Positions 1,861-50,200 of a DNA stretch of 64,000 nucleotides are shown one piece after another. Position 1 is the stretch's first letter, and each line of letters begins with the position of its first letter. The translations under genes were made by a program, and so were the position numbers. The DNA comes from Azolla caroliniana (lineage: Eukaryota > Plantae > Polypodiophyta), in contig JBHGNT010000012.1 of NCBI GenBank assembly GCA_043228905.1, forward strand, positions 6,386,001 to 6,450,000, read 5' to 3'. Under the pieces are notes generated by a model that did not search any database, had not been told where the DNA came from, and saw only the letters and a list, made by a program, of their open reading frames with translations.

Positions 1861-2171
1861 TGTCATGATATGGCAAGACTCGAACCCATGACCTTAGGTT
1901 ACATAGGTCGAGCTCTTGACCATTATACCATCTATTGTAATACATAAGATATTATTTTCATTTAAGTTTCATTATAGAAAATTGATGTATATTCCAAATT
2001 TCTCTGGAACATTCTAGAAACTTCAAGAGTACTCCTGAGAATATTATAAAAGGAGGCACAAGGCATTATTTCGAACCAAATCGGTTTAACGCCAGTCTTA
2101 AGCCTCCTAGCTACTATTGTATACTCTCTTCACATAATATATATTTTTTATCATCATTCTCTCTCACCCTT

Positions 2172-2204
<33 letters not shown>

Positions 2205-2312
2205 CTCTCTCTCGCTCACTCTTTCGTTCTCTCGAGAGTTCTACACCTCTCTTAGTACTAATCCTCATCTTTTAGTACGGATTCCTTCTCTGTCTTAGTA
2301 CTGATCATGACA
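1861..2312 (+). mobile_element. Solo LTR (452 bp) inserted in LINE copy 1
   Basis: Termini TGTCATGAT...ATCATGACA, 5-bp TSD GTGGT (1856-1860 and 2313-2317). Excision restores LINE ORF2 LPSG|KSPGWDG. TATA-like TATAAAA near 2045 followed by a CT-rich tract suggests + orientation. Confidence 0.93.
1871..1935 (-). promoter_or_regulatory. tRNA-like Pol III A/B-box module inside solo LTR
   Basis: Minus strand reads TGGTATAATGG (A box, 1920-1930) ... AGGTCATGGGTTCGAGTC (variable loop plus B box, 1877-1886) at tRNA spacing. The cloverleaf is not closed. Confidence 0.65.
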
Positions 2313-5300
2313 GTGGTAAGAGCCCTGGTTGGGATGGCTTAACAAATGAAGTTTTTAAGCGATATTCAAACATTTTAAAGGGGCCCTTAACTTTGATGTT
2401 TCAACATTCTTGGGATTCTGGTCGTATGCCTCAACCTTGGAAGGTTGGTCTAATTAAATTAGTTCCAAAGGTGGCATCTTCGGAGTCATTTCATCAATGG
2501 AGACCTATTTCTTTGATATTTACAAATCTCTTGGCAAATAGATTACAAAAGTATTTGCCAAAGTTGATACATTCCGCCCAATATGGTTTTATTGCAGGTA
2601 GGAATATATTGCATAATGTGTTGAATGTTCAAATGGCCATGGATTATGCTCAAAACACTCATCAAGAATTGATTATGGTGCAATTAGATTTGGAGAAAGC
2701 TTATGATCATGTTAATAGTTGGTCCTTTGTTTCTAGGTTAATGCATACAATGGGCTTTGGACTTCGTATGTTTCGCCTCATATTTTTATTAGGACAAGAT
2801 GCGGTGTCTCGAGTAATGGTTAATGGCAGAGTTACATCAGATATTGCCCTCACAAGATCCGTTCATCAAGGATGCCCTATTAGTCCATTGTTGTTTGGTA
2901 TTGTTACTCATCCCTTGTTAGTGATGTTATCCAGGCTTGCAACAAATGGTGATATTGTGGGTCTACACCTTCCGCCTCGAGGGCAACTAATAGCACAGGC
3001 TTTGGTTTATGATTCTTTCATGTTTCTACAAGCCTCATGAGAGAATCTTGAGAAGGGGATGCTTGTATGGAACCAATTTGCATTGGCTTCTGGATTACAT
3101 ATTAATTGGAGGAAGTTTAGTCTCATATCATGTACTAAAAGGGATTTGGAATGTTTAGGATGACAAGGATTCGTGGTGAAGAAAGGCTCTATTTTTTGAC
3201 ACTTGGGGTATCCATTAGGAATAAATGTTACAAATAGTCAATTGATTGAATGGATGTCTAGTAAGTTGAGGGATAAGTTCATGTATTGGAAGTCACAATC
3301 TTGGTCATTTCATGTACGCTTGAAGGTTGTACAATGTATTATGGAACCCATGATATTATATTATTTTCCATTGTTTCCATGGACAAAGAAGGCTTTGCAT
3401 TCTATTTTGCAACCTCTTCGATATTTGTTGTGGAAGAAGAGGGATAAGACGGGAATCACTCGGGTTGCATGGAATCATCTAGCAACCCCTAAGTGCTTGG
3501 GGGGAGCTGGAATGTTGAACTTATCTAAGCATATGATGGCTCGTAGATTTTCATTATTACAAGATGTGTTCAAACTCACAACCATGGATATCTATTGTTC
3601 AATATTTCATTGAGAACAAGGGTTTAACACATGGGAGGACAACGATTAAGGCTTCATGGTGGCAATTATTGAATGGATGTATTTCACTTAGGATTCCGGC
3701 CTCTACATATGTTCAACACTTGGTTACCTCATGGCAAGAAGCACTCTTTTTATGTGTATGAAAACCATCATCTAGTAGAGAGCATTGTAATTCTTTGCAA
3801 AAAGAGTTGCTTCTGTCTTCTCGACTATTATGTTGGCTAGGAAAGGAGAGATTGCGCTCTCAATTTAATCGTTTGTTTTGTTTGGGGGTCAAAGAGGTGG
3901 GAGATATAGTTGAGGCTCCATCTCAAAGAATTTTGGAGTTTGTTGAAGCGCGACAATTATTACGCATTCCACCTGATTATGGGTTTATCTGGCAACAACT
4001 ACAAAATATTGCATTGATGCAAGGTCCCTTACCTCTACAAATGGGAGAACAACCGTGGTTTGATTGCTGTTTTAAGGGTCAAAAATCATTGTTACAAGTG
4101 ACTACTAATCTTTTGTATCATTGCTCTGTTGAGTCTCTTGGATGGTTATCATCCAAGGCTGAAGAAGAATGGAGATTACACAAATCTGATCATGGGTGGT
4201 GGTAGATCTTACAACGTAGTTGGCATTCTAAATTGCCACTTGTAGCAAAGGTCTTCATTTGGAGAGTTTTGATTGGAGGTTTGCCTTTGGGATTAGCTCT
4301 AAAGCGTTGTGGAATAGCAACGGGTAATTGTTTCTTTTGCATTGTTCAAATGGAAGATAGTACTCATCATTTGATACAATGTCCGATTGCTTGTCAGATT
4401 TGGAGTTACATTTCTCAGATTTGGCAAGTTTTATTACGGTGTTATTTGACATCTAGATAGTGGGTGTTTGCACAATTTACACAGGTTGACCCAAAATCAG
4501 AGATGAAGATCGTTTTTCTATTTCTGAGATATTGGGGTTTGCGTCATAATTGGAATATGTGCAATGCTTTTGTATTCGACGATATACATGGAGTGAAAGC
4601 ATATCTACGACAGTTGAAGGGAGTACTAATGTGGCAATTTTCTTTATTGGAGCAAGTGGAAATTCTTTCCTAGGTGGAGTGTTCGTCTTGCCTATTGGCA
4701 ATTCAACATGTTCCATACTCCATTGTCACACCGATTGTAAGTAGTGTTTTTTACACACATTTATTAATATAATTGTGTGTCTTATGGGGGGCATCTTCTC
4801 CTCATAAGAAATATATATTATGAAAAACTTTATTTGATAAAGAATGGGATGTTTTAAGTGCACTTGAACATAAGTGCCATGATTTAGGAGGATATGTGTT
4901 GCATTTGCGTGGATATTCTGCATATTATGCAGGACAGGTATCACATCATTACTCATGGGTTGTCAAGATTATTCGTGATTTGTTTTGTCAAGATATAGTC
5001 TATAATGATCCATATGGACGTTTTTTGGTGATGGAAGTCAAGTATTTTGAGGATTTGATATGGTTGGTAGGAAGCTATGCACCCAATAATGCTAATCAAC
5101 GCATTGAGTTATGGCCTTCAATGTATCCACGGTTATTAGTGGGCCGTGTTGGTTTGTTAATGGGTAATTTTAATATGTGTGTTGATGCTTCACAATCTAC
5201 TTCACGGTTCTCATTGATGGATTCTCCCGAGCAAGCAATTTGGGACAAATTGGCAGATTCAGAGGTTTTGAGGTTAGATGTATGGAAATGGTTGCATCAA

Positions 5301-7864
5301 GATGAGGTTGGGTTTACATTTCAGTCTATGCAATATAAGGAAACATGGAGTAGGTTAGATAGAATGTATGTTATGCATGATGAGTCCTTTTTGTTAGAGA
5401 TTCTTAATATGTCAATTATGCAAGAGGTTGTGACATCGGATCATTTTCCCATATGTTTTGAACTATTCAGTAAACATGGGGTAGATATGTACAAAACATT
5501 GCTTGATCGAGTTCCTTTGAGGTTTAATTCTTCTTTATTATTACATTCCTTATTTGATGCCTATATGCAACAAATGTTTGACATGTTTTCAGAACAAGTT
5601 ATTTCAAAAGGGTGGCATGCATGGGATACAACACTACAAAACATCAATAATATTCACCATTTGTATGGTGTGGCTAATGCTAAAAGACATAAGAAATTGA
5701 TTGATAAGTTTTCATATATTCTTACGCGATGCAATGTACTATTGATGACTGATCCGCATGATGAAGAGCTTTTGGATGTTCAAGTTCAAGTACATGACAT
5801 TATGAAGAATTTGTCTTGTCAAAGTTATCAACAGACAAGACTACGTCAATTAGAGGGATTTATAGATAATCAATCACAATCTCATATGCTTTTTCAAGGA
5901 TTAAGACCACCATATGCTCGTTCAAATGTGGTACAAATTAAGATAGGGGATGAAATTGTTGTAGACCCAATGAAGGTTATTGAGTTATGTATTACTCATT
6001 TTAAGAATTTGATTGGGCCAGAGTTGATTATTAATGAGGATGTGTTGAAAGCACGACAAGAGTTTTATAATGTAATTGGGAGTGTCATGAATACAAATAT
6101 TTGTCAAGAATTGGATGCTGATTTTGAGAAGCTGAGGTGGAAAAAGGTATTGTTACACCTTCCAAATGGTAAAAGCCCTAGTTGGGATGGTGTTACAAAT
6201 GAAGTTTTTAATAAGTATGTGGCATGCTTAAGAGTCCATTCACACAAATGTTTCAACAATGTTGGGATTCTGGTTTCATGCCTGAGAGTTGGAAGGTGGC
6301 CTTAATCAAATTGATACCAAAGGTACCATCTCTGGAGTCATTTCATCAATGGAGGCCTATTTCACTTATGGGAGGGTTATACAAAGTGTTTGCAAAGATA
6401 TTATCCAACAGGATTCAGAAGTTCTCTCAATATGGTTTTATTATAGGTAGAAATATATTGCATAATGTTTTGAATGTTCAAATGGCTACCGATTATGCTC
6501 GACATACACATCAAGAAATGGTTATGGTGCAATTAGATTTGGAAAAAGCATATAATCATATTAATTGGTCTTTCCTCTCAGGCGTGATGTATAATATGGG
6601 GTTTGGTCCTCGTATGTGTCGACTTATCTTTTTCTAGGGCAAAATGCGACCCTGCATGGGATGCTTAATGGTGGAGTTACTCCGGAAGTGTTTCTTACTA
6701 GATCTGTGCGGCAAGGATGAACTTCACTAAGCCCATTGTTATTTGCTATTGTTACACATCCTTTGTTAGTAATGTTGTCAAATCTTGCGGCTAATGGTGA
6801 TATTGTGGGTTTGCATCTTCCTTCTAGTGGACAATTGGTGGCACAAGCATTGGCTGATCATTCTTTTATGTTTTTACAAGCCTCAAAAGAAAATCTTGAA
6901 ATGAGTATGCAAGTTACAGATCAATTTGCTTTGGCTTCAGGGTTGTGTATAAATTGGAGGAAGTCTCGCCTTATTTCTTGTACGGAGAGTGATTTGGAAT
7001 GTTTGGGATGGCGAGGATCAGTGATTACACGAGGATCAATTTATCGACATTTGGGTTAATCCATTGGGTGTTTATGTTACAAATGTTCAATTGATTGATT
7101 GGATTGGTACTAAATTGAAGGACAATTTTATGTATTGGAAGTCTCAATTATGGCCCTTTCATGTATGACTCAAAGTGGTGCAATGTATCTTGATACTCAT
7201 GTTATTGCCTTTACTACCTTGGACTAAGAAAGCATTATAAAACATTTTACAACCTATTCGGTTCATGTTGTGGCAGAAGGGAGAAGATGGCGAAAAGGCA
7301 TTTGATGGCTTGTAGATTTGCATTATTATGAGATATATATCAACAAGATCAACCATGGATATCTATGATGCAATATTTTATTGAACATGAACGATTGGTG
7401 CACAGGAAAACAAAGATTCAAGCATCCTTGGTGGTCATTACTCAATGGAAGTATTCCTCTAAAGATTCGACATTCTGTATGTGGACAACATTTGCTAAGC
7501 TCGCGGCAAGATGCATTATGTCTTTTTGAATGAGGACCATCAAGTGATCGAGAATATTGTAATTCATTACAAAATGAATTTCTTGTTTCATCTCGAGTTT
7601 TGTTTTGGCATGGAAAAGAGAAGTTGAGATCTCAATTCAATTGTTTATTTCAATTGGGGATTGTACATTTGGAAGATGTGGTTGATAATGAATCTCAAAG
7701 GTTGTCAGATTTTGAAGATGCCAAGCGATGGTTATGTATTCCCCCAAATTATGGATTTATTTTGGAGAAATTACAAGATATACATACCATTGTTGCAAGG
7801 ATCTTTGCAATTAAAAACAAATTTTGCACCTTGGGTGGATTGACGGTTACAAGATGGTACACGC

Positions 7865-8624
7865 TGTCGTGAAGAATCCGTCACTACGTGCGGATCGTGA
7901 GGCGAACCGCTAGGGTTCTGGACTGGAAGGATTCGAAGTTTGTACTAGCTTTAGCGAGAAAGTATTTAAGGTAGATTGAAAGAGAGAGATTGAGATTGAG
8001 AGAGAGATTAAGATTGAACCCTTGACTTTAGATTTGAGGGACAAGATATATCATCAATTGGATAACTCGAATCTTTGATTAAAAGTTTCTTTTTTACTTA
8101 CATCACTTGCCCCCTTACACAAGCCCAACTATAGGCTTTTATAGGTCTCTCCATGCGAAAACCATGGGCTAAAACCACGAGCTAAAATCATGGACTAAAA
8201 CCACAGGCTAAAACCATGGTTTTGTGCCAACGGTTTTTATATGTTGGTTTCCTACAAAATATTGAATATGAAAAGAAAATACACAAATTCCAAAGCACTC
8301 AGTAGTGGCTTTAGTGGTATTAAGTTAATTTGTCTCCTATCTTGGAGGTGCAAGGTTCAAGCCTTGTTTCCAATGCCCCTATGTATGCACTTAAATGTTA
8401 CTAGGCTTTAGTCTCACTTTTTATATTTACAATTGAGCGCACATCACACGTGCACATGTTTAACTTTACATCTAGCTTTTCTTTTACGATTCTCATTCCA
8501 GTCCTATTTACAACATGCTAGCGTATGCGTGTGGCCTTCACCCCTTTCAAACGTGCACATTCCACCTTCTCGATGTCGTTCGTTGCACACAATTTTCACA
8601 CCATTGCCGAAAATCTTCACGACA
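7865..8624 (-). repeat. 3' LTR of the 7865-11753 element
   Basis: Direct repeat of 10995-11753, adjacent to the polypurine tract. Contains short AAAACCATGGGCT-type tandem repeats (8158-8220). Confidence 0.93.
8300..8372 (+). promoter_or_regulatory. tRNA-like Pol III A/B-box module in LTR U3 (second copy at ~11432-11500)
   Basis: TGGCTTTAGTGG (8306-8317) ... GGAGGTG CAAGG TTCAAGC CTTG with a paired T-arm (B box 8354-8363). Retained in both LTRs. Confidence 0.6.
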
Positions 8625-10241
8625 TCCACCCCCACCAAACCGCACGTCCTCGGGAACGTGCCAAGAAGAGAGAGTGTGAGATTTCAGCTACGGTGATTAG
8701 TACAATTCCTCCATTTCGAGCATGTCCATTCCATTCACTCAAACCATTGTCGCCACCCAATCCACCATATCATTCGCTCATGCTTTGCTTTACCATGAGC
8801 AGTTGTCATGGCCCCTTGTTCTCCTTCCGAGCATAACCGTTTAGGCTTTATGCATGTTCCACCTTCGTTTCGACCATCTCCTTGGTCAAGGCACTCCGTT
8901 ACTCGTCCACCTTCGTCATACAATCTCACGTTAGAGTTGATGATCTTCACGTTCGAGCCCTCCTTAGTTGAGATCTCATCCTCGGTAACACCCTTCAAAT
9001 TCGCTTGGCTCTTTTGGCCCTTGTCGTAGTGTGCCTACTTGGCCTCTTCCTTGTCTTCATCAACCTTGACTTATTTCCGGATCGGTCTCGTCCGATCGGC
9101 TTTCGGTTGGATTGGCTTTTGTTCGGATTTGTATTCGGTTGAATCGGACTCGGTTGATTGGTTTCGACTGAGTCGGCCCCCTTCCGGGTTGGGTTCGACC
9201 GATCGGTTTCGGTCCGTGTTGGCTTCCATTTCCTCGTGTTCACCGGCCTCAACCGGTTCAACCTCTGGTTGAGTCGGATTAGCTTCTTTCCGGATCGGTC
9301 TCATCTGATCAACTTCTGGCTGGAATGATTTCCATCCGGGTTGGGCTCGACCGATCGGATTTTGGCCGAATCCACTTCCACTTGGTTTGGCTTTTGTTTA
9401 GGCCGGAATTCCGGCCGGATCATCTTCCATCCGAACTCACTTTCGGCTCTACGTGCCTTGCTGCCACCTCCCATCTCTCCAGTCTCATGTTGGTTCTTGG
9501 ACACAACCGCCGAAGTCTCTAGAATTAGTGGGCAAGAATCCTTGGTATTACCGTCCTCCGTTGTTTCGCCCATAACCACCTTCTCGGCTATCTCTTCGCC
9601 GTATACATCGACTTTGACCTTTGTTTTCTCTCCGCCACCTTCCGTCTCTTCGGTCTCATGTTGCCTTTCAAACACAACCGTTGAAGTCTCTAGAATTAGT
9701 GGTGGGAAAGTCTCGACACGACCATTCTCCATTGACTCGTTCATAGCCACCTCTGACTTGATGTCTTCTTTCGTGGCTACCTCTCTCTATAGACTCATGG
9801 GCCTCGTACCCATTAACCCTCTTGCTCGAGCAAGCCTCGATTATGCTTCCCTCTTCGTCACATGTATTCGTTTCGACCTTCGGCTCCTCGCCGACACCTT
9901 CCGTCTCTTGGGTCTCATGTTGGTTCTTGGACGCAACTACCCAAGTCTCTAGAACAAGTGTGTAGAAAATCTGGCCATGGTCATTGTCGACGCTTGTTGT
10001 CTTGTTCATAGTCACCTCCTTGATGTCTTCTTTAGCAACTAGATCCTCAATTACGCTAGCCTCACACTCTTTATCTCCATTGACGCAAGCTTCAATTAGG
10101 CTTGCTCCTTCATCATCCGATGTTTCGAACACGACGCGTGTTCCGAAACATTCATCCTCCCTCGAAGTGGCCTTCTCCGTCCTCGAGTCATCATCAATCT
10201 TCTTTTCATGTTGGTTCCTTTGTTTAGGCAGCTCGACTTCT

Positions 10242-10832
10242 TTAAATGGTCTTTGTTTTTTCTACGTTTGACCTTACCAAGTCAATATCATCAAGCCATT
10301 GACGACACCTATCGATCTTGTTGCACGCTCTCTTCACCGCAACCCCGTCTATCACAAGCCCGTTCACTTGGGTATCATCTTCAAGGAGAGTCCCCAATTC
10401 TCGTCTATCCTTCATATACACAGCTTTCAAGAAGTACAAAGTCTTGTCCTCCTCAATCAGCACTTGGTTCGTGGCAGGCAGACGACTAGACATCTGGTCG
10501 AACTCGTCGTACACCCTCGAAGCGCTCATCTTCTTATTTTTCTTCTCTGTCCATTTCATCAAGACATGTCGAGTCATCCTCGACAAATCTTCCATCGCGA
10601 ACTCCGCTAATATTGCTCTTTCGAACTCTGACCACGTTTTCTTCCTTTCTTGAAGCTCGATGACCCATCTTTGGACGTTGTTGGCGGCAACTCGCTTGAA
10701 ACTCGAGATTTGATGTGCTTCAGACACGTCCCTTTGATTCGTCTCCCTTTTGTATACATCAAGGAACTTCGTAATGTTCCTTCCATCAAATTGACCCTCG
10801 AGCTCCACGATACGGTCGACGTCCTTCTCCAC
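10242..10832 (-). pseudogene. Retrotransposon gag-like ORF fragment
   Basis: Lies just downstream of the PBS. EGQFDGRNITKFLDVYKRE..W..FERAILAEF resembles a retrotransposon capsid. Continues through frameshifted low-complexity ORFs to ~8735. Confidence 0.75.
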
Positions 10833-10968
10833 GCTCGCATCATTGTCTCAAGATCTCATCATTTGTTCGACGATTAGAATCATCCTTTCGAATTCTCCCG
10901 CTTGATTGCTTGAGGATGTTATCTCCAAGTATCGGTCGATCCTCGACTTGATCCTTCCTACTGCCTCT

Positions 10969-10986
10969 TTCACGTCGGGTTCACCA
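10969..10986 (-). other. Primer-binding site complementary to the tRNA-Trp 3' end
   Basis: + strand TTCACGTCGGGTTCACCA equals the last 18 nt of plant cytosolic tRNA-Trp(CCA) as I recall it. It sits 8 nt inside the 5' LTR. Confidence 0.85.
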
Positions 10987-10994
10987 CATAATTA

Positions 10995-11753
10995 TGTCGT
11001 GAAGAGTTTGTCACTACGTGCGGATCGTGAGGCGGAACCGCCGGGGTTCTAGACCGGAAGGATTCGAAGTTTGTACTAGCTTTAGCGAGAAAGTATTTAA
11101 GGTAGATTGAAAGAGAGAGATTGAGATTGAGAGAGAGATTAAGATTGAACCCTTGACTTTAGATTTGAGGGACAAGATATATCATCAATTGGATAACTCG
11201 AATCTTTGATTAAAAGTTTCTTTTTTACTTACATCACTTGCCCCCTTACACAAGCCCAACTATAGGCTTTTATAGGTCTCTCCATGCAAAAACCATGGGC
11301 TAAAACCACGAGCTAAAACCATGGGCTAAAACCACAGGCTAACCATGGTTTTGTGCCCATGGTTTTTATATGTTGGCTTCCTACAAAATACTGAATATGA
11401 AAAGAAAATATATGTCAAATTCCAAATCACTCAGTAGTGGCTTTAGTGGTAAGTTAATTTGTCTCCTATCTTGGAGGTGCAAGGTTCAAGCCTTGATTCC
11501 AATGCGCCTATGTATGCACTTAATTGTTACTAGGCTTTAGTCTTATTTTTTATATTTACAATTAAGCGCACATCACACGTGCACATGTTTAACTTTACAT
11601 CTAGCTTTTCTTTTACGATTCTCATTTCAATCCTATTTACAACATGCTAGCATATGCATGTGGCCTTCACCCCTTTCAAACGTGCACATTGCACCTTCTC
11701 GATTTCGTTCATTGCACACAATTTTCACACCGTTGCCGAAAATCTTGACGACA
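10995..11753 (-). repeat. 5' LTR of the 7865-11753 element
   Basis: Direct repeat of 7865-8624, adjacent to the PBS. Confidence 0.93.
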
Positions 11754-12690
11754 ACGCTTGTTACACGTCACTACAAATATATTGTATCATCATATGATGA
11801 CATCATTATCTTGGCTATCTCCTAAAGCAGCGAAGTTGTGGAATGTATGTAAGTCAGATGCAAGGTGGTGGAAAATATTACAACGTAGTTGGCATTCCCA
11901 TCTACCATTTCGTGCAAAGGTATTCATATGGAGAGTCATGATTGGTGGGCTCCCATTAAGTTCGGCCTTAAAGAGACGAGACGAGGACTAGGGTCCGGCA
12001 CTTGTTTGTTTTGCATTGTTCCATTGGAGGATAATACACATAGGTTCATTAAATGTCCTATAGCGTGTACCATTTGGCAAGTTTTAACCTGTTGTTGTTT
12101 GAGACCTCAACAATGGGTTTTTTCTCAATATGTTCAAAATGGATCAAATGATGAGATATAGGTATTGTTCCAATTTTTACATTATTGGGTTCTACAACAT
12201 AATTGGAATATGCATAATGCTTTCATGTTTGATAATAGACATGGGGTGAAAGCCTATATAAAGAAGCTTAAAGGTATTCTCATGTGGAATTTTTGGATGT
12301 TAGAGCATGTGGGGATCATTTCCTCAAATGCATATTCAGGTTTTTTGATAGCATTACAGAACGTCCCTCTCCATACATAGGCATATTGCAAGATGAACTC
12401 ATCATCAATACAATTATGTCTTTGATTTATTTGATTTTTATGTTCGTGCTTTCTAATGTTTAGTAGTTAAGTAATTCCTAAGTTTTGAACTTTCAATTGT
12501 GTTGACATTTGATTTAATCAATATATAATATAGACCATAGTCTTTTTTTGAAATTCCAATCTTTATTTTTTTTCCAACTTATAAATCCAATCCAACTTTG
12601 AGATGATTTACAATACACGTTTGATTCAATCATTCTCGAATGCGAATGCACGTATGTTACGTATTGTTCATTCTATGATTGTAACTAGTT

Positions 12691-12693
<3 letters not shown>

Positions 12694-12735
<42 letters not shown>

Positions 12736-12955
12736 GGTGAAAAGGCCCAGACGAATGTAGCTCAGTTGGTAAGGTTGCCCAATGGAGAGCAGGTGGTCAT
12801 GGGTTCAACCCCTACATTCCACAGTGGCGTCTAGTGAAATAGAGATATATATAAAGTATATAATAGAGAGGTGAGAAAATTGGGTTTCGAACCCAAGACA
12901 CAATGCTTGTAATGTTATCGACTTACCACTAGGGTAAGCTACTTACAATAATAAT

Positions 12956-12988
<33 letters not shown>
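12694..12988. mobile_element. SINE-like unit with two convergent tRNA-derived heads between (CT)n and (GA)n tracts
   Basis: + strand TAGCTCAGTTGG...GGTCATGGGTTCAACCCC (12750-12822); - strand TACCCTAGTGGTAAG...TGGGTTCGAAACCCA (12880-12942). Flanked by (CT)n 12694-12731 and (GA)n 12958-12987. Confidence 0.55.
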
Positions 12989-12990
<2 letters not shown>

Positions 12991-13392
12991 CAATCGGCAA
13001 TAGTTTGGTTTGAGGTGGTTCAGTTCAAAGGTGTCAAATTCAAACCGTTTAAAAAAATTGAGACTTAAACTGAATGGAACCAAACCAAACCATGAAAACG
13101 TTTAGACCGAAATCATTTAAATCGAAACTATTCAAGAAAATTAATTAATAATCAATTGTCAACTCTAAACCGTTTAAGCCGTTTAAACAATCTAAACCAC
13201 AATTTCAAATCGTTTAAACTAAAAATCATTATGTCGATAAAAGTTCAAACCGAACCGTTTAAACAATTTTAACCATAGTTTCAAACCGTTTAAACAAAAA
13301 ATCATTAAGCAAATAATGGTTCAAACCGAACCGTTTACAAAAACTTGAACTCAAACCGAACAACGTAAACCATTAAATCATTGTTTAAACTG
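12988..13392. mobile_element. Non-autonomous DNA transposon fragment (hAT-like subterminal AAACCG repeats)
   Basis: Many AAACCG/AAACCGTTTAAA motifs. The start TAGCAATCGGCAATAGTTTGGTTT resembles 53107 TAGGAATTGGCAACGGTTCGGTTT. No second TIR found. Confidence 0.4.
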
Positions 13393-13753
13393 TAGGGAGG
13401 GAGGGGGGACATTTGTAACGCAATCAATACGTTTGTTTAGCGGAAATGTAAAGATCGTGTGTTCTCGTACTCTAGATTCAATTTCTTCCATAAGTTCCAA
13501 TGTATTGGCTATGCTATAATACCAATAATATCGAAGTATATTACGATTGAATTGGAAATCCGAAGTATATTATTATGATTTAAATATAAATAATGTTGTA
13601 CTAAAATGTCTCCACAATGAATTCAATCATTTATTTGATGATGCATTGGATCTTATGAAAGTTATAAACAACATATAAAAGTTAAAACAATATGTTAAGG
13701 ATTGTAACATGTTGATCAACAAAGTTAGAACAAAAGAGGATGTTATGCAAATT

Positions 13754-17466: not shown

Positions 17467-17551
17467 CATCATGAGAGAATAGTCACCTTGATATTTCAAA
17501 TTACTGCATCATGAGAGAATAGTCACCTTGATATTTCAAATTACTGCATCA
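17467..17551. repeat. 40-bp tandem duplication in the CPN60A 3' UTR
   Basis: CATCATGAGAGAATAGTCACCTTGATATTTCAAATTACTG present twice. Confidence 0.9.
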
Positions 17552-17557
17552 TATATT

Positions 17558-20500: not shown

Positions 20501-23500
20501 TCTTCCTAACTCTTCAACGATAGCAGACACTGTCTTGTCTATTCCCTTCCTCACAGCTACAGGATTTGCACCAGACGTAATATTCAGAAGACCCAGTTTG
20601 ATTAGTTCTCGGGCAAGGACACAAGCAGTTGTAGTGCCATCTCCTGCTGAATCATTAGTCTTGCTAGCTACCTATGTATAGGCAGTATTAATCCAATCCG
20701 TGCACAGCTATATATAGTGTAACTTAATAGAAAATATTCTTTGTTTCTAAGCCACTCCTTATCATCTAGAGCATACAGTTATTCATAGCACTACCTCTCT
20801 GATGAGAGCAGCCCCAGCATTCTCCATCGGGTTTGGTAATTCAATAGCGCGCGCAATGGTCACCCCATCATTAACAACCTTAGGAGATCCAAACTCATCG
20901 AGGACCACATTACGTCCTGAAATTTTTGCATTGTACATAAAATATCTTGTTAAAATCCTAAAATTTAAGGTTTAGCAGACTACATCACAGAGAATGACAA
21001 TTCCTAGGAAACATGAGACACAAAGAAATAACCATCGAGCAAGTCACACAGAATTTGCATTGTTTGACATTTTTTAAATTTACATGGATGACAATCAAGA
21101 GCTCACAGTATCAAATAGAACCAGACAATTTGACAAAGCACACCATTATCAAACAGCAAGAAGAACAGAACACAAATGCAATTCCTAAAAACTTGTCCAC
21201 TTGAACAATATCCTTTAGCACAGGCTTCAAAAATCGAAGTGCAGAAGATCACAACAATAAGCATTAAACACATGCATTTCCTAGCAACTTTAAGTGACCA
21301 TGGAATATGATCAAGTAGCTCAGAGCCCAAAACAGATTCAGTGAATTTCAAAGAAGAAAAAACTTTAAAATAGTACTCATGTTCTCGAACCATTCCCTCC
21401 AAACTAGACCCCTCATTTTTGGCCTATTATGCATAAATACTTTGACCATGTATTCTGGATTTCTTTCATAAGTGACAAAATTGTACAGGCTTACCAATAG
21501 ATCAAACATTACGTTCATAGCTACACTTTGGTCTATCCAGAACTAGCAAAAGGCTACAGCAACCCCAATGTCTTTGGCCTCAAATTATGCATCTTCTTGC
21601 ACATGTCTGAGGCATCAATTCTAGTGTAGACCATGACTTTCAATTCAAACTTTAGGCCTTTCAACTGTTTTATGATGAATAATCATTCACTAGAAGGAAG
21701 AAAATCAATTCTGAGATGATCATGTTCATGATGCAGCTCATCAGCTGGCTGATCATATATTTTAGACAAATTTGCTCACTAGGAAATATAAAACAAGCTT
21801 TCAAAGTTTCATGATCCATTTGCAAAATAAAATCAGCACCCCAGAAGTATTGTTTTCCAGCTGGAAAGGTGTGACTTACAGCCAAAGCCTTGGTCCCATA
21901 AATCTAATAACCCTTAGGCTACCGAGTGTAGGTGGTCACTGGTCTATGCCATCCACTAATCTCCGTAAAATCATCATCCTCGGCATATAGCTCCTTCATT
22001 TAATCATCCCATTGTAGGTGCTTTCAGATGTATTTGCTTATTTGGGAAAATAATGCAAGATGTCATAATCCATTTGCAAAATAAAAGCAGCACCTACGAA
22101 GTATTTTCTTTTCATCTGGAAGAAGCATGAATTATAGCCAATTGCTCATTCTCATAAACCTGGCGAGCCTTACGCTACCAATCGTAAGCAGTGACTGGTC
22201 TATGATTGGTCAGAAAAACTTGTATCTGACCAATAACGCCAACAGTAGCTCAGTGTCTGAAAGCGCAGAACTTTATAACAACAATTTCTTATATCTAAAA
22301 GCAACAAGGTTATATATTAAAGAACGCAAAGAATGAATCATATGCAGTTCCTTAGAACGAACTACATCAACAAGAGTTTAACAAATGCAATTCTGTAAAA
22401 AATGTAGATGATCAACATCAAGAAATTTGCTGCAAGAAACATAAGCACACTAAAATTACAATATTGACATGGGTGACAAAAACCCAGAGACCTCGCCTAT
22501 AGCAATGTTCGCCTTAGCAATTATCACCCGCCAAATTACACTTTTCAAAGCTCACTCTAGCCATTTCTCTGCTGCTTTCTGGGCCGAAATTGATTGAAAT
22601 TGAAGGAAAGGGAAGAGCAAATCCGAGTGTTTTTTTTTTTTTGCAAAACAACAAATAGCTATAAATACAAGGAAAGAAATAAATCTCACGAACACACAGG
22701 AATGAAACGCTTGCTTTTTTTTGTTTGAGCGGTTTGACTCAGATAGATACATCCTCATGGAAGTAGACAGAAACCTAAGCACCTCTATATAAGTACAAGG
22801 AAAGAAATAAATCTCACGAACACACAGGAATGAAACGCTTGCTTTTTTTTGTTTGAGTGGTTTGACTCAGATAGATACATCCTCATGGAAGTAGACAGAA
22901 ACCTAAGCACCGCTATATAAACACAGTACGAATGGAAACATATGCAGTTCGATTGTGCAGTCTGCGACAATGGAGGACAACAAAAAACTCAACACAAATC
23001 AAGACAGCAAAAACTTTGTGACAATGATATCATATATCAAACAATGCAGATGAAAGCACGTGCAATTCCATGAAACTCTATGTGAGCAGGACAGCAATAA
23101 TAGAAAATTCACAAGAACAGAAAATTTCACACCTGTAGGGGTCTTGAAGGAATAAAAGGATAAGTTCTCACACCTCTAGGACCCAGAGTGACGCCAACTG
23201 CATCAGCGAGTTTGTCAATTCCTGCTTGTAAAGCAGACCTACAGACTTCATCAAATAATATTTCCTTTGCTTCTGCTCTAACAGTAAGACGGGAGATACT
23301 TCTAGCTGAGCCACCTTTGATTCCTACAGTAGTTCTGCTTCGTAGTGGTAGACCTCCAAGAAGAAGATCCATTCTCCTCTGCAAGAATTCAGTTCTCCCC
23401 TACAAAATGTGAACAGATGCAACCAGAAAAGAGAAGGCCAAATAATTAAAAAAACAGTTAATACTGGAGAAAACAAAGGTTCTCCGCAAGATCATTTAAC

Positions 23501-26425
23501 AATCATCTAGAGAAACAAGCCTTTCGTTTACAATTTTTCATTTTGGGAGAAGCAAGCCTTTCCTACAATATCGTTCAAGGCAATTATCAATCATTTGTGA
23601 GAAATTAACCATCTCTCTTTGACAATTTGGGAGTATCAAGCCTTTACTACATGATCTTTCACCACATACATAAAATGGTTACTGAAAAGACAATCTTTCC
23701 CATAATGTGAGAAACAAAACCTTCCCGAAAACAAGACCTTGTAACAGTTCCTTGAGAAGCAAATCCTTTCCTGAAAATATCTTTCAACACATCTTCAATA
23801 GTTTGTGAGCCATTCTACTGATGTCTTTTAAACCTTAGATACATCTCTCAACTGGTGTTTAATGCATCTTTCATCCCTTCTATCAAAGGTTTCTGAAAAA
23901 AATCCAATGAATATCATTGTGCTTCTATGTTAAAAGGAAAGAAGTTTGTAACCTGGATGCCAAAAGTAATCCAAGTGGGTGTACAAATGTCTTCTGTCCC
24001 CCTAATGAACAATTTGTGGAACAACAATCATGACATTCTACCATCACCTACTTCACTTAGTTCTACACTCACTTCTAAGAAGTTCGAAATCTTTGAGATC
24101 TATACAATCACATTATCAAATTAAATGCTCTTATTGTGTATCATAATTTGAAACATTATCCACATCCTTTGAGCTTAGCCACCCCTCAATCACATCGGAC
24201 GTTCTTGATTGTCCAATGACTATCAGTGATGCATGGTAGAGTCCAAATAGTGCTGAATGGCAAACTTCGATGGAGAACGAGTTTGCATCTCCCTTTGCCA
24301 ACAAAACATGGATTATATTATCACTTCTTATATACTACTCGTCTAGCTCATGCAAATGGGTATTGTTGCAAATTTGCACCTTGATGGTAGTACAATTGCG
24401 TGCTACGAACTTTGTATTGTGGATCATGATTTCCCTCTAGTGGAAGGACTTGAGTATTCTAAAACATTTTCTTTCGTTCTACATATGGAATCATTCCAAC
24501 TATTATGGATATAGCCACCATTCTTCACTTTAAGGTCCATCACTTGGATGCACATGCAACATTCCCGCAAAGTGACCTACAAAAAGAAAATTACATTCCA
24601 CAAACTCCCAGATTTCAGTCAAGTTCACAACTCAACTATGTTTGTAAATTGTTGGGTCCATTGATCCCTATATGGACTTGAACAATCTCCTCAATTATGG
24701 TTTCAAATTTTAACAATTTCATGCTTTCTCAAGGCTACTCTATATCCATATATTTACATTGGACATAACTAGAGATCTAATTTACTATTGGTAGTAACAT
24801 TATAAGTGGATGACATCCCTACAATGAATTCAACAACCTTCGACCTATCAATTTCATCCACATTGAGTCATTGTTACATGTGGTTAGCATACTAGATCAT
24901 TGAGAAGTATGTGATGCACTCCACGAGATTATCTTTATCATAGCACATGTGTATGTGAATGACATGTCAGCCATGGCAAAAAAGGTGGAGAACCTAGTTA
25001 CAATTGTCGCAGCATGAAAGGGTTTAAGATCCCAAAGACAATGGCATATTGTGGTTTGGTACATTAGCCACTATATGTCTTGGATACGTAAATGGTTTGG
25101 GAGTGACCGAATAGTCCCATTGGACGTGCTCACTACAATATTCAGGTGTTCCTCGAACTTGACATATGGGTTAAAAAAAGATTAAAGGAATAGAATGTTG
25201 GGATGTGGAAGGTCACATATAAGCTTTGACCCCTCTTTGAGTTGTGTACAAGATGAGGTCTTTCCAGAAGCAAATGTCAGGATTGTTGGTGGTGGTCAAA
25301 GTGGAGGCATTATAGGCAAGCAAAATCCACTAAGCTCATCACCTATAAGTTGTCGGGTGTTGTCGACGCGTTGGCAGTTCAGTAGGAAAACCGAACACTC
25401 TCTCGAGTGATCAATGCATGACTCAGTAAACCTGCCCTCCCTTACTTTCCTTTAACCTTACACACGATTCTCACATTCTTCACCTCTCTTAGTCCTCAGA
25501 AATGCGAATGCCAACCGGTTGGCTGGACAATGGGTTTCTCGAGCCTCCATGTCGCTTGATCAACAACAACCCAGGTTTCTCCAGCATTGGAAGCCTCACC
25601 TCCAAGTTTGGGTAAACTGTTTAGACTGTGTATCACTTTCAAACAAGGTATTCGTCAATGGGAGCAGCACCCATCCAATTTCATTAAGAGTTTGTTTTGC
25701 AATAACCATAACATATGAATTAGAGCCATTGAGAACAAAATTTGTTGTTTTTTTGGATCAATATTGGATCATTGGCTGAAAATCTTGTAGTATACTATTC
25801 ATATGAAGTTTCTGAGCTACAACAAGGCAGCGAAGCAGAGGGGTCGTCATCTTTTCAAAGAAGTCCAAATTAAGTGGTGTTGGTCTCATTGTTTTTCTCT
25901 TTAAATTTTCTATCTTTATAGCTTGTTTTCTTTAGCTTTTCTATAAAGTGTGGTGAGGACTAGTCCTTGAGACCTCTAGCCTTTGCAATTTCAAAACATC
26001 CTCCAACAGTGTGAGAGAAAGAAACTCTTGTCCACAATATTTGCGAAGACATATTTCTCGACCGTTAGTGAGAAACAATACTTCCCAACAATATTCTCCA
26101 ACTAATTCAAAAGAAAGCATGGATTATACATAGAGCGCAGGATTTAGGGGATAAAACAAAGAGAGCGACAAAAAAAGGGTTACAGAAAAGCCTTTCCACA
26201 GGATGCTCTCATCACATAGTCTTCAAGAATTAATGAAAAAGAAGCCTTCTCTTCGCAACATCTTTCAACAAATTCAAAGGGAAACCATACAGCATGCAAA
26301 AAAGCGAAGGAAGAGATGAGAGAACTTACAGGACGGAAGGAAGGAACCGGCGAAGAAGAAGAAGAACAAGAAGGGAGAGGAGCTGCTGTGAAGACGCCAT
26401 TATGCTGCAGAGCTTGGGCTGCCAT
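17558..26425 (-). CDS. CPN60A: Plastid chaperonin 60 alpha subunit (RuBisCO large subunit-binding protein alpha), ~615 aa, 9 exons
   Basis: Exons 26425-26330, 23399-23174, 20916-20795, 20671-20464, 20366-20221, 20142-19836, 19529-19279, 18492-18292, 17848-17558 (1848 nt, in frame, GT-AG). Ser-rich transit peptide; [28 protein letters not shown], alpha-type [19 protein letters not shown]. Confidence 0.96.
18560..18955. mobile_element. Mutator-like MITE in CPN60A intron 7
   Basis: ~70-bp imperfect TIRs (GAGAATTTACCAAAATGGCCATCCAAATTTTGA... / ...TCAAAATTTGGATGGCTTTTTGCTAAACTCTC) with an AT-rich, imperfect TATAAT-containing flanking duplication. Confidence 0.7.
22667..22920. repeat. 128-bp tandem duplication in CPN60A intron 2
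   Basis: Near-identical copies start at 22667 and 22795. Confidence 0.9.
24170..24830 (+). mobile_element. Highly decayed Ty1/copia RT fragment in CPN60A intron 1
   Basis: Remnants of [40 protein letters not shown] and a VDD-like segment. Confidence 0.65.
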
Positions 26426-26465
26426 GGCCGCAGAAAGGCGAATAGGAAAGCAAAACGCAAAAACC

Positions 26466-26490
26466 TTCGAACAGTCTCTAGAACCTTCTA
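26466..26490 (-). promoter_or_regulatory. Possible heat-shock element next to a TATA-like box upstream of CPN60A
   Basis: Minus strand GAAggTTCtaGAGacTGTtcGAA (alternating nGAAn pentamers, two imperfect) adjacent to TTTAAATA. It lies on the gene side of that box, which is atypical. Confidence 0.3.
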
Positions 26491-26703
26491 TTTAAACCTC
26501 CCCCCCCCGGTCCAAACGCGTCCACATGATGCTTTCACACCTGTCCGGACAAAAAGAAAAAGAAATTCGCTTTCCACACCCACCCTTATGTCCGTCCGGC
26601 CGATCGATGATTGGCGTCATGAGAAACCGACTCCTACTGGACGAACCGCGAAAACACATCAATCTGTTCGGCTCCATCATGTCATGTTCGGTTCCATCAA
26701 ATT

Positions 26704-26910
26704 GCGCCCCGACTGGGTGGGTAATTAGAGTTGCGATTCGAATCGCGCCCCCAACTAGGTGGGTAATTGGAGCTATGATTCGAATCCCGCCCCGACTGGG
26801 TGGGTAATTGGAGTCGTGATTCGAATCACGCCCCGATTGGGTGGGCAATTGGAGTTGTGATTCTAATCTTGCCCCGACTAGGTGCGTAACTAGAGTTGTG
26901 ATTCGAATCA
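26704..26910. repeat. ~41-bp minisatellite, 5 copies
   Basis: Unit GCCCCGACTGGGTGGGTAATTGGAGTTGTGATTCGAATC(nn); four of five units end in the palindrome GATTCGAATC. Confidence 0.9.
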
Positions 26911-27719
26911 TCGAGTTGAGGCCTTTTCATCCGCCTGTTAGAACACAAGCATGCATTGTCGCTAGGTGAAATGTGAGCGAGACCACCGGGGACCTGAACC
27001 AGAGAGTATGGGTTTGATGAAGAGTTGTCGAATATGTTATTCCTCTTAACTGTTGGTTGTACGTGGGTCTCGGCTTCTCTCAAAATGTTCAGTCGAGCCC
27101 CGTGCAAGTAGGTGTATACGTGTTTTACAAGTATAATTGAGTGTGTATGTGTATGTGTATGTGTGTGTATATATGTCTATATATCTCATGTATTGTATAT
27201 CATCTTTCTCCCTTTTGTTACCTCTTAACAACATTTGAACTGGTACACCAAAACCATTCCCATGACAACGTGTTCTCCTTCTCCTTTTATAGGTTTCAAG
27301 AGTGCCCTTACCAAAATAGTTAGGTTTCTTTTTTGTTTCACATACTTCGTTCGACATCATCTCTTATCCCTTTTGTTGCCTCTAATGACGTTCAAATTGT
27401 ACACCAAAACCATACCAATAGTTAGCTCTTAGTAATTAAACTATATTTTTGTTGGTTTAAAGTTATCCCTTATAAAGCCGTTTCAATTATGTCTTTGAAT
27501 ATAACCTTAGCCTATAATAAAACTCATTTTTTAGGTGCTTTTCTCTATTGTGCATGCCACATCTCGAGAAAGTTGTCCAATCAAGGACGCGAGATACTAG
27601 CGGGTAATGAGTTTGATCATTGATTGAGTTATGCTCGATGGATATTTTACTCCAACAACTTTTGTCAATCTGTGTGTTATCTATTATGGGATTCGTTGAT
27701 GTAGGTCACTGGAGATGGT

Positions 27720-27982
27720 TATCAATGAAATTGGACAACTAAGGTATCTACGGTAACACACAAGTATAATTGTTACTAGAAGGGTGATCTATTACAAACG
27801 ACTAAGGTATCTATGGTAACACACATGTATAATCATTACTAGAAAGGTGATTTATTACAAACTATATGTCGCAATATCGTTCATCAATGAAATTGGATGA
27901 CTAAGGTATCTACAGTAACACACATGTATAATCGTTACTAGAAGGGTGATCTATTACAAACTATATGTTGCAATATCGTTCA
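27720..27982. repeat. Tandem repeat, ~62-bp core x3
   Basis: ACTAAGGTATCTAnGGTAACACACA..GGTGATCTATTACAAAC at ~27738, 27801 and 27900. Confidence 0.85.
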
Positions 27983-28349
27983 CACTATACAACATTGATC
28001 GCACACAAAACCTCACTACCTTGTTTAAAATACTCATTACCTATACTCAATCAATGGAGGGGAGCTCGGGCCCAATGACATTATGACATGCTAACCTTTA
28101 ATGTGACTTAGGCACAGAAAACATTTTGTAGTACCACTTAAGGAGGTGAGCATGGAGCAGAGAATACATTGTAGGTTGCTATATGAATATAGTGTGTAAT
28201 GTTCTACAACATCTCAAAGTATAATCTATGATGTTCTACAACCGTGTCACGGCTTCAAAATGGCCTATTCTCATGACTTGAACATCTACGAAACAACTTG
28301 TTGACATAAAGTGCTACACGAACACAAAGAGCTAGTTCTGATGATCAAG

Positions 28350-29560
28350 GAGTGGACCTTCCCATTCCTTTTGGGAACTATAAAATGGATCTCAACCAAG
28401 TTGTTCTCCTACTAGTAAAATGAAGATAAATTAGAGAAGCTTTCCAATGTCCTCCTTTACATTAGTGACATAATCTACGTTCATCAAATGGCAAGTTACT
28501 ATAATGGCTTGACATTTACATTCAGTTGCACTTTGTTCATAGAAGTAGGGATCCAATGTTCATATCTGTTCATTTGACTAGGTGAAAATGATCTTATAAA
28601 CACCTACCAAGTTGATGACCTCTTATCAAAATAACATTGATTAAGCGCTTTTGTTATGTGCACTAGTTTGGGATATCTATCACTCCCAAAGTTAACTTCT
28701 TCCATCTAAAACTTTTTCATGCACCAGGAGAGCAACATTTCATACCCCAACACCTATCAATATCTTTCTAGCTTGGCAAGTAGCGATATCTTTAATCAAT
28801 GGGGGGGGTAAGTAATTGTTGTTGCTTTGATCAAAGCAACTAAATCCCATGACCATTGATAATTATTACCCAATTACCTAAAGAACATTCATCTCAAAAG
28901 GAGAGATTTGCATGGAGGTATGCCATCGAGTATAGTTGGATTTCAATGTCATCCAATTCATCGTAGCATGTTAATGCTCTCAATGTACAAGGGTATTGTA
29001 ACATCATTGCCTCATGGACCCCACATGAAGGACAATACCACATTGGTCTTTTGATGTTCAAACAATATGTGGTTTCGTGCAATTGTTCTTGATATGCATT
29101 GTCCACAACCACGAGGGACCCATATGAAGGGGATACACATCATCATAATCCAAGTGTTTACTATTGTTGAGATGTGAAATGGGTAGCCTCTTGAATTAAT
29201 TGTGAAGTTCTTGGTCAGTCCCATAAGTTGCATTTACCATATTTGGAGGCAAATGGGGAATATTATCCATGACTTAAAACATCACCACAACATATTTGCT
29301 CATTGATTATGTTAATATTCAATCTACCCTCTAAACCACATCAAGTACATTGAACTTGTTGATCTAGATGCACATGTTTTCTAGCATGTATAGACTTTAA
29401 GTATGTCTTCCAAGTGTATGGTGATGAAGTTCATGTTTGACTCCTTACCATTGTTGTCAATTGGTTAGAAGTGGCATTCATCATTGAAGTGGATGTGTTG
29501 CTAGATAGATATTCATGGTGGTGTGGAGAGCACTGACTTTGAAATATATGGAGCATAGTG
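28350..29560 (-). mobile_element. Decayed Ty3/gypsy pol fragment (protease end to RT start, Athila/Tat-like)
   Basis: Minus-strand remnants YPLHMGPSWLWTMHIK (protease LLGRPWL-like), LDPYFYE..MNVDYVTNVKEDIGKLL..TWL..FIVPKRNGK (RT N-terminus). Confidence 0.7.
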
Positions 29561-30195
29561 CTCATAAGGAAGTTTGATGGTGGTGTGGGGATGCAATTCT
29601 CATTGGACATATTGGCAATGATGTTAGTGTTTTGCTAAAAAAAAATTGTCAAGATCATAGCAAATAACAATATTGAATTGAAAATGACAATAAGAAAAGG
29701 GAAATAATAGAACAATATGAGAACAATATCATATCAAAGAACAATAGGGAAGAGGGAAATAATAAATGAATGTTAATGCACAATATACAAGAGTACACCA
29801 AAGATTGGCATTGAAACATAATGGCGTATCAATACCAATATCACTTGCTTATATAGTATTTTGGGACACGTGTATGCATGTGGCCTCACATTTATACGTG
29901 ATTGCTACTTGGTATTCATGCAAATATGTTATGTGGCAATCATGTGTTAGCTTGTCCGAGGTGGGCAATATCTCATAATATTAAACGTATAGTTTAAATT
30001 ATCTATGCCCACAACATTTGGTGATGAATGATGACTCTAGTATTACATATATACTTTTGGTATTTGTGTCACTTTCGTGTGCCTCACCGAAATGTATCTA
30101 TAAATTGGTGGGAGTTTTTACCTTCTCGTCGATGTTGTTGGCCTTGAGCTCGGACCCAAATATTCCCTCTTGGTGACAAACGGGGCGGGAACAAT

Positions 30196-30621
30196 TGTCA
30201 AACACTCCCGAGCTACTAACTAACTTAGCTTAGGATTAGAACTTAATCTCTCTCTTTTTTCTCTCTTGCTTTACTCTCTCTTTCTATCTCTTATAATGAT
30301 AGACAGGGCAAAACACAAAGAAAGTACTTTATCAATAACTTCTCTTCTTGATTATTCCTTAACCCTAATCTTTCTTAGCTCTAATAAGGATTAGGGACAT
30401 AGAGGTGGAGCTTAATACGCTAATAGGGAGAGAACTCTCAAGAATGACGAATAACCCTAAAAGTCACAACAAGTGTCTTTTATAGTTTTTTTACAAAGTT
30501 TCTCTCTTTTGCACTAGAGTGCCCATTGGGCCATATTGGTCCTTATTTGGTTTGTTCTATCCCCCTATTTTCCTATGGTTGGTTGAGCTTGATGTCCTTT
30601 GTTGGTGTCGCGATCTTCACA
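30196..30621. mobile_element. Probable solo LTR (426 bp)
   Basis: TGTCA...TCACA termini, imperfect 5-bp TSD ACAAT/ACTAT. TTTTATAG near 30480 suggests minus orientation. Confidence 0.5.
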
Positions 30622-30671
30622 ACTATTGTACCAAGTGTTATGAGCATATAACAAAACTACAAACTCATAAT

Positions 30672-30728
30672 AGAGATTTGAACCCATAACCTCTCCAAAA
30701 AGATGTGTAACCTCAACCATTAGTATAG
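30672..30728 (-). promoter_or_regulatory. tRNA-like Pol III A/B-box module at the start of the chromovirus LTR
   Basis: Minus strand TATACTAATGGTTGAG (A-box-like, 30717-30727) ... GAGGTTATGGGTTCAAATC (B box 30675-30684). Confidence 0.55.
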
Positions 30729-31817
30729 ATTTATATTTATGATTTCACACTTCATTATGATATATATGGAACCATTCCGGTCCAACACTAGTCTTCAACC
30801 TATTCTTGTAACCCTTGTTTTCATTGTCAATTTCCTCGTATTTCACTCTCATTTCTCTCTTATTTTCCTCTTCTCGGCTACAACCCTGACAATTTGAACT
30901 GGAATACTACCCTTCTTCATTGCCATCTTCATTCCTCTCTTGTTTTCATTTTAAACTTGTTCTTGGCTACAACCCTGACAATTTGAATTGGAATACTACC
31001 CTTCTTCATTGCCATCTTTTTTATCTTTTTATTTTTTGAAGAACCTCTCATCCTATCTTCTTGTAACCATGGAAATAGTAAGTAAACAAGAATAAATGCG
31101 CGTTGTAGTTTATCTTGAAGGCTTAACCACCAAGTTCATGGCCTTGGAGCAGGAGAATCAAACACTTCTCGAGGATTTACAACAAGTGAATGTTGAGAAA
31201 GCTCAACAACATGAGGAATTAACTCAAAGGGTTCACCAACTTGAAGTGGCATTAGTAAATTTGCGACAACAAGCATTGCAAGCACCAAATCCGCCAAAAG
31301 AACCCAATACATGTCTTCCATCGAAGTTTGATGGTACTTAGTCACAAGTTTGAGGATTTCTATACCAAGTATGTCTAGTAAATTACGAATGCATCTCACT
31401 TAATATCCAACCGATTCGGCACGAATAGGGTTGGTCAATACTTTATTGATTGGAACAATGCTAGCTTGGTTTGCGCCATTACTCAAGAAAAGGTGCCCCA
31501 TTTTGGATAATTTTGATGAGTTTATTAAAAGAGTTTCAAGCTTGTTTTACAGAATCTGCGGATAGTGGGGAAACTACTATCAATTAGATTTGAAGGTTAC
31601 GATAAGGAGATTGCCCAACCTCAGCCTATGTGGCAGATTTTAGCTTTCTTGCATGTGACATCCCTTGCGACGAAGAGGCATTGATGGATCAAGTTCGACA
31701 AGGACTTCATAATGATGTGACAACCATCTATTCGAGCGATGTTCTGAGCATCAACAATGGTCTTCACGTTGATCAGAGCAAACATATGACGACATTACCA
31801 TCCTTTGGAACTTTGTA

Positions 31818-50025: not shown

Positions 50026-50200
50026 CGCACAGTGTTTGGGTTATTTACGAAAATGGGCCTCCCCCCATATTTTCCATAAATTCCCAATATACCCCTCACT
50101 CAATCTTCCACACTTGTGTATATTAACTTAACTGTAAACGCACACAATTATATTAACTGTAGTATCAGTATGTAAAATCCACTTGTTACTCTCTCTCTCT

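Follow-up and report, generated by a model that had tools for sequence, protein, structure and literature searches.

The 64-kb window analysed here (Azolla caroliniana, contig JBHGNT010000012.1, positions 6,386,001 to 6,450,000 of the forward strand) contains long terminal repeat (LTR) retrotransposons of three families, and in each of them the U3 part of the LTR carries, antisense to the element, an A box and a B box spaced as in the promoter of a tRNA gene, which is read by RNA polymerase III (Pol III). Family 1 is represented by a solo LTR (1861..2312, + strand) that sits in the reverse transcriptase frame of a long interspersed nuclear element (LINE), between copies of the target-site duplication (TSD) GTGGT (1856-1860 and 2313-2317); the empty LINE site, with no family-1 LTR at 1861, was seen in 10 contigs of public sequencing runs, and a purine tract precedes other copies of this LTR. 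Its module, M1 (1877..1930, - strand), has an A box at 1930-1920 and a B box at 1885-1877, both without mismatch, at a T8-to-T54 distance of 46 nt. Family 2 is represented by a non-autonomous, Phygy-like element of 3.9 kb (7865..11753, - strand) with the TSD ACGC at 7861-7864 and 11754-11757. It has a 3' LTR (7865..8624, - strand) and a 5' LTR (10995..11753, - strand), identical at 724 of 764 positions, a gag-like reading frame (10242..10847, - strand) with 67 relatives and no Pfam family above cut-off, and a primer-binding site (PBS; 10969..10986, - strand) which we take to be that of tRNA-Trp, in agreement with a Phygy trait. Both of its modules are on the + strand, namely M2a (8306..8363), with a distance of 50 nt owing to a 3-nt insertion and a T5 run at 8418-8422, and M2b (11438..11492; A box 11438-11449, B box 11484-11492, distance 47 nt), with a T6 run at 11546-11551. 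Family 3 is present as a 5' LTR (30636..30891, + strand), without its 3' LTR in the window, and the module M3 (30675..30727, - strand) combines a perfect B box with an A box of two mismatches at a distance of 45 nt and has a T5 run between the boxes. This LTR is followed by a self-primer site (30894..30905, + strand; complementary to LTR bases 30774-30785 at 11 of 12 positions) and by a broken gag (31069..32137, + strand) with stops and frameshifts. The LTR end and self-primer site of element 3 are duplicated in tandem (30849-31018, ~89 bp), and its gag holds a 138-bp tandem duplication (31818-32093). The LTR positions given by an earlier, sequence-only reading of the window were confirmed, as were the TSDs, the priming site and the minus-strand orientation of the family-2 element.

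The modules were found in a scan for A boxes and B boxes that follow the consensus and have T8 and T54 43-50 nt apart. The core words of this consensus match those in PMC10886601. Chance levels came from 60 block-wise dinucleotide shuffles of the window and from 2000 shuffles of each LTR. Four pairs with both boxes perfect were present in the window (M1, M2a, M2b and one head outside any LTR), against a shuffle mean of 0.0 and a maximum of 0; with one mismatch allowed there were 5 pairs for 0.57 expected, and with two there were 10 for 3.1. A perfect pair arose in only 1, 1 and 0 of the 2000 shuffled LTRs; the boxes are far beyond chance expectation. The A-box patterns include one, with an extra base, that was introduced post hoc, after M2 had been seen; if it is left out, M2a and M2b each carry a single mismatch, a level which 22 and 16 of 2000 shuffled LTRs also attained, and the score of M3 was matched by 18 of 2000 shuffles of its LTR. 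The antisense pairs at tRNA spacing, each with AGGT ahead of the T arm, stand as first described, M3 being weaker. M1, M2a and M2b have the A box, B box and spacing of a type-2 Pol III promoter, from which M3 falls short by its two A-box mismatches. The description "tRNA-like" held for boxes and spacing and failed for the cloverleaf, as ARAGORN returned no gene and Rfam no tRNA match at E up to 10 for the modules.

Plant type-2 Pol III promoters additionally have an upstream TATA-like tract and CAA at -7 to -3 (PMC3082873). The DNA upstream of the modules is AT-rich, but so is all of U3; the CAA of M1 is conserved (pairwise difference 0.063), yet it lies at +1 to +3, and that of M2 is gone from most copies. 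A T-run terminator is present for M2, absent within the family-1 LTR and, for M3, located inside the module. Regarding the LTRs' own promoters, the module had been placed 5' of the TATA box in every family. This stood for family 1, with its TATA box at LTR position 185 and the self-primer target at 218; for family 2, where TATAAAA matches occur at LTR 200, 384 and 480 and the module at LTR 262-316, the order is presumed. In LTR 3, a TATA-like word (30761-30767) lies 27-33 nt upstream of M3's putative antisense-strand +1 and precedes the self-priming target by only 13 nt, and because of these distances it fits an upstream TATA of Pol III at least as well as one of Pol II.

The three families had been called unrelated, which is no longer tenable: they represent two lineages, since families 1 and 3 both self-prime and their gags are 45% identical over 228 amino acids. 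Self-priming, a 5-bp TSD and a chromodomain are the marks of Tcn1 chromoviruses (PMC6317226, PMC2864245), and family 1 has all of them, with its TSD GTGGT and an integrase with chromodomain. The copy of element 3 lacks pol and the 3' LTR and shares the Tcn1-type self-priming; no further copy of the family-3 LTR end was found in scans of metagenome loci and genome contigs. Phygy elements are marked by a 4-bp NCGN TSD and tRNA-Trp priming (PMC6317226), and family 2, whose copy in the window is without pol, is assigned to them from its TSD and PBS traits: the TSD is ACGC in the window, and this pattern also opens the flanks of other copies. Both Tcn1 and Phygy were described from moss or club-moss. 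LTR 1 and LTR 3 align weakly (7 of 500 shuffles were as good), and at positions 41-52 M1 and M3 are each as similar to S1, a candidate head of a short interspersed nuclear element (SINE) elsewhere in the window (8/12), as they are to each other; therefore, for these two, a shared ancestral module and independent captures out of a single SINE family are indistinguishable. Between the two lineages, which differ in TSD, priming and module position, at least two captures are likely. The convergence suggested by the sequence-only reading survives to this extent and not as a three-fold event, and an antisense orientation shared by two lineages has a chance of 1 in 4.

The modules of families 1 and 2 are inherited parts of their LTRs and not copy-specific SINE insertions. 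For family 1, this was judged from public sequencing runs and from a metagenome scan by purine tract and LTR start, in which the module was not used; it covered few assemblies and gave 67 loci, 10 of them family 1, and the other 57 were excluded from every family count. The B-box region is there in all 10 family-1 loci, without mismatch in 6, with one in 3 and with two in 1, and the A box was reached in 8, 5 of them with 0 mismatches and 3 with 1. L029 was excluded from alignments, its LTR start being the same as that of L041, and L010 and L033, interrupted before the A box, are outside the 8-row statistics. The family-1 LTR was found in runs of five organisms. Over the stretch 1740-2130, contigs that start at 1861 with differing flanks and have the LTR start and the module contiguous numbered 47, 89 and 70 in three runs. 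Among the 9 family-1 joints listed none cuts the module out cleanly; the A box is missing from two single contigs. None of the 40 family-1 variants listed falls at 1861-1892. Read depth, a proxy for the number of aligning copies and not for copy number, was highest of the stretch in the B-box bin in two of three runs (X1 and X3), and the A-box bin was among the shallowest of the LTR. Twenty-two reads of a poly(A)-selected RNA run (X23, ~12% of the run covered) fell on the family-1 stretch and 0 on the family-2 module, from which we draw no inference.

The chromoviral nature of family 1 was seen at the same loci. A chromodomain lies upstream of the LTR in L014, L029, L041 and L062 and an integrase core in L029 and L041; in L041 the LTR stands between an integrase-SH3-chromodomain frame and gag, and 12 of 12 bases of the self-primer pair with the LTR 33 nt behind the TATA box. 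This single LTR joins the pol end to the gag start (L041:1-2983), as in a tandem or circle-type junction, with open frames and a contig coverage of ~98. The self-priming target in R (window 2072-2097; L041 LTR 205-230) contains a sense B-box-like word which, with its nearby inverse, gives a small hairpin at the transcript start. We rejected this word as a second module, as it is the self-priming target and lacks a proper A box (one hit with a mismatch in L062). Of 96 candidate upstream frames (46 loci) 80 were scanned for chromovirus proteins, and among the non-family-1 loci with scanned frames only L057 had a chromovirus integrase. Six other loci (L015, L027, L048, L050, L053 and L070) belong to an unclassified, GC-rich repeat family that shares the purine tract and the initial TG and has no B box near its start. 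In viral contigs, one pattern scan returned 5 unrelated loci, and three protein scans and one module pattern gave no match. The modules might also serve as landing pads attracting elements that target Pol III genes, or have some other role. Targeting of tRNA genes is well known, but neither in the window nor in the 10 family-1 loci did insertions lie at a set distance upstream of a module, and the carrier would gain nothing from it; we consider this explanation most improbable.

In family 2 the boxes form a conserved island while the surrounding U3 turns over, which is a stronger sign of selection than anything in family 1. The depth of the B-box bin was 28,472, 38,463 and 6,916 in three runs. 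The next bin downstream had 916, 945 and 41, and the depth ahead of the A box, on its upstream side, was 903, 1,986 and 884. At least eight joints (8 of the 15 shown) exit the LTR directly after the B box and re-enter at varied places of U3; one contig skips the B box. Among the 40 family-2 variants listed, none falls in 11440-11454 or in the B box, and a diverged subfamily (13 and 21 contigs) has its own, fully canonical A box at a distance of 45. A 6-7 bp repeat flanking M2 was considered as an old TSD and ruled out, since most family copies differ there.

The antisense position in U3 is also what a role at the RNA level would directly predict: on the element RNA the module is complementary to the D and T arms of a tRNA and could pair with a packaged tRNA, joining the RNA ends for minus-strand transfer. 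Precedents exist in Ty3, where the 3' part of a bipartite PBS lies in U3 (PMC5371799), and in a tRNA-Lys3-like sequence in U3-R of HIV-1 (Piekna-Przybylska 2010, cited in PMC6468702), and the best conserved stretch of family 1 does reach past the B box into the variable loop and the T stem. Like these, our modules are complements of tRNA arms in U3; those sequences match the primer tRNA, whereas ours do not. A comparison of T stem and 3' end gave 1/5 and 3/18 matches between the family-2 module and its primer, so that a Ty3-type bipartite PBS was not found there. No tRNA is needed by families 1 and 3, which prime themselves, the A box of family 1 shows all four bases at position 12, and the B-box arm of this family is locked in a hairpin. 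We therefore regard pairing with a tRNA as improbable.

The hairpin just mentioned is a rod of 19 bp (1870..1923, no strand assigned), which forms because the A-to-B spacer of family 1 carries an inverted B-box arm. Its stability (z -5.1 and -4.4) and the three base pairs in which both partners have changed (a level matched by 15 of 500 shuffles; 92% of cells paired, with the structure taken from the same rows) could indicate that the product matters, that is, that Pol III makes short antisense U3 RNAs that regulate the element or the host, as hairpins in family 1 and as a unit of ~120 nt in family 2. In support of the latter, a run of T5-6 lies 53-54 nt past the family-2 B box, where it could end such a unit, and at least four joints begin just behind it; Pol III microRNA cassettes in the U3 of foamy viruses provide a precedent (PMC3993851). 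Nevertheless, the rod folds on either strand and palindromes self-correct, it is weak in 3 of 8 family-1 copies, and it was not found in M2, M3, S1 or S2 (z -1.3 to +0.7). The family-1 LTR has no terminator, the family-2 T-run region is almost without coverage in run X4, and the T6 run of M2b, a possible Pol III stop, is equally the complement of a TATAAAA. The foamy virus cassettes, likewise A/B-box units in U3, have demonstrated transcripts, hairpins and terminators, whereas here a predicted hairpin and a putative terminator occur in one family each. A functional Pol III product thus appears unlikely, if slightly less so than pairing with a tRNA.

Possible donors of the LTR modules are present in the same window. 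S1 (12758..12811, + strand; perfect A/B pair) and S2 (12884..12936, - strand; one mismatch) have no recognised LTR around them and face each other between (CT)n and (GA)n tracts (12734-12958), each following (CT)n in its own sense. S1 has a 6-bp repeat on its flanks and has kept an 8-bp acceptor-like stem. We consider both as candidate microsatellite-associated SINEs. The same short junction word follows (CT)n beside S1 (12733-12744) and at the end of a LINE-derived fragment (50200-50220), which suggests a LINE family inserting into microsatellites.

Taken together, the boxes, their orientation and their persistence lead us to favour, tentatively and with somewhat less than even confidence, the reading that the antisense A/B pair in the U3 of Tcn1-type and Phygy-like elements derives from SINE-type heads captured at least twice and kept as a predicted TFIIIC binding site in the DNA. 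This factor recognises A and B boxes, and its sites are nucleosome-poor and can insulate (PMC11346459). In an antisense module, TFIIIC would have the flanking DNA on one side and the element's Pol II TATA box on the other, with TFIIIB placed on the TATA side, and the resulting nucleosome-poor barrier could allow the LTR promoter to be used where silent chromatin surrounds the element. Pol III transcripts, if there are any, would head away from the TATA box. A sense module, by comparison, would send Pol III through the TATA box, R and U5 into an element of 4-6 kb, which is probably beyond Pol III transcription; this could be why sense modules persist only in TRIMs, short miniature retrotransposons with terminal repeats, such as Cassandra and Helenus, and antisense modules in long elements. 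In its boldest form, which we regard as doubtful, long protein-coding LTR elements of two distant lineages would each have co-opted a tRNA-type promoter, now a portable TFIIIC barrier that faces outward and shields the Pol II promoter from silent chromatin, and orientation would sort by element length, sense serving as promoter in TRIMs and antisense as barrier in long elements.

The modules could instead be passengers. SINE heads are common in the genome, and one could have landed once in an ancestral Tcn1 LTR and one in a Phygy LTR, to be copied with U3 ever since; antisense copies would be tolerated and sense ones removed, or the shared orientation would be chance. Two of the five hits with at most one A-box mismatch lie outside LTRs, the lineages number only two, and M1 and M3 resemble S1 as much as each other. 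Several further observations weigh against a retained TFIIIC site. The sequence-only reading had asked whether the boxes are more conserved than neighbouring U3, which in family 1 was not the case for the B box: across 8 copies the pairwise difference at invariant B-box positions was 0.155, compared with 0.15-0.18 in neighbouring U3, in a comparison blurred by low-coverage copies that decay after insertion. In addition, C61 is changed to T in three family-1 copies in common, and a high-depth subfamily has A-box G10 changed to A (13-21% of depth in X1 and X3). The most constant stretch of this family is the 9 nt ahead of the B box (0.028), outside what the TFIIIC consensus demands, and the B box itself, 17-25 nt from the LTR end, is in a region that should be conserved regardless. 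M3 has decayed, with its two A-box mismatches and its internal T5 run. The module is missing from the copia LTR of the window and from 221 bp of the chromovirus LTR of L057, and, judged by eye, from the LTR of SM-Tcn1; it is therefore dispensable for Tcn1 elements. Finally, the literature searched yielded no plant evidence for TFIIIC barriers.

Mere hitchhiking, on the other hand, does not readily account for the survival of both family-2 boxes in three organisms and across subfamilies with U3 regions of unlike length and sequence, nor for the pair and its spacing in families 1 and 3, retained though the remainder of the LTR barely aligns. The A box of family 1 points in the same direction: in the 8 rows it varies at positions 9, 11, 12 and 15, and 6 of 8 variants are allowed by the consensus, mostly at free or two-fold positions (p 0.03 counting any change, 0.21 with transitions only). 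Overall, passenger modules are the leading alternative, which we consider possible and rather unlikely.

Boxes of this kind in LTRs are already known, and what sets the present ones apart is their antisense placement in the U3 of long coding elements. The Helenus/TRIMp3 TRIMs carry tRNA-derived boxes in the LTRs of fungi, animals and Selaginella (Helenus-1_SMo; Kojima 2024, PMC10886601). The sequence-only reading, which knew of no such description in plant LTRs, is corrected by the Selaginella element. As in our families, these are A and B boxes inside an LTR and no functional tRNAs, and a SINE insertion into the LTR has been proposed as their origin; the same paper mentions "not a few LTRs" in Repbase with tRNA-like sequence, of which those under 1000 bp were analysed (PMC10886601). 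Helenus, with Cassandra and Ajax the nearest system described, differs in being non-coding, with 311-1263 bp, whereas the elements studied here code for gag or pol (family 2 has 3.9 kb and a gag). Moreover, the boxes of Helenus-1_SMo are, by eye, in sense and proposed as the promoter of the element, while ours are antisense, in U3 and beside the TATA box. Insulators made of tRNA genes or extra TFIIIC (ETC) sites likewise use the boxes as DNA elements with a role in chromatin; these have been shown for host loci of yeast and animals (PMC11346459), and here such a role is predicted for mobile elements of a plant. The accessible sections of Neumann 2019 (PMC6317226) and Novikova 2010 (PMC2864245), which describe Tcn1 and Phygy, do not mention an A/B module, and the literature searched, mostly short of subscription journals, held no report of antisense A/B modules in the U3 of either.

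Elsewhere in the window, positions 1-7200 are occupied by two tandem LINE copies with repeats ~3850-4310 bp apart, the first of which bears the solo LTR. A 41-bp unit is repeated five to six times at 26666-26910, each copy with the palindrome GATTCGAATC. The copia element has a 5' LTR at 45991-46335, a tRNA-Met-type PBS and a pol remnant at 47293-47664; its LTR has no B-box core and served as a control.

The question on which these observations bear is how LTR elements that lie in or target heterochromatin get transcribed. If the modules are passengers, their value is limited to that of a marker of LTR ancestry. The finding widens a theme known from Cassandra and Helenus from tiny non-coding elements to coding ones, and the proposed rule can be tested in LTR libraries by comparing box orientation with element length. 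If the TFIIIC reading is true, TFIIIC sites in U3 would be an anti-silencing device that requires no protein of the element. They would be direct evidence that plants have TFIIIC barriers, and a very large number of LTR copies would count as potential sites of Pol III or TFIIIC with possible effects on nearby genes.

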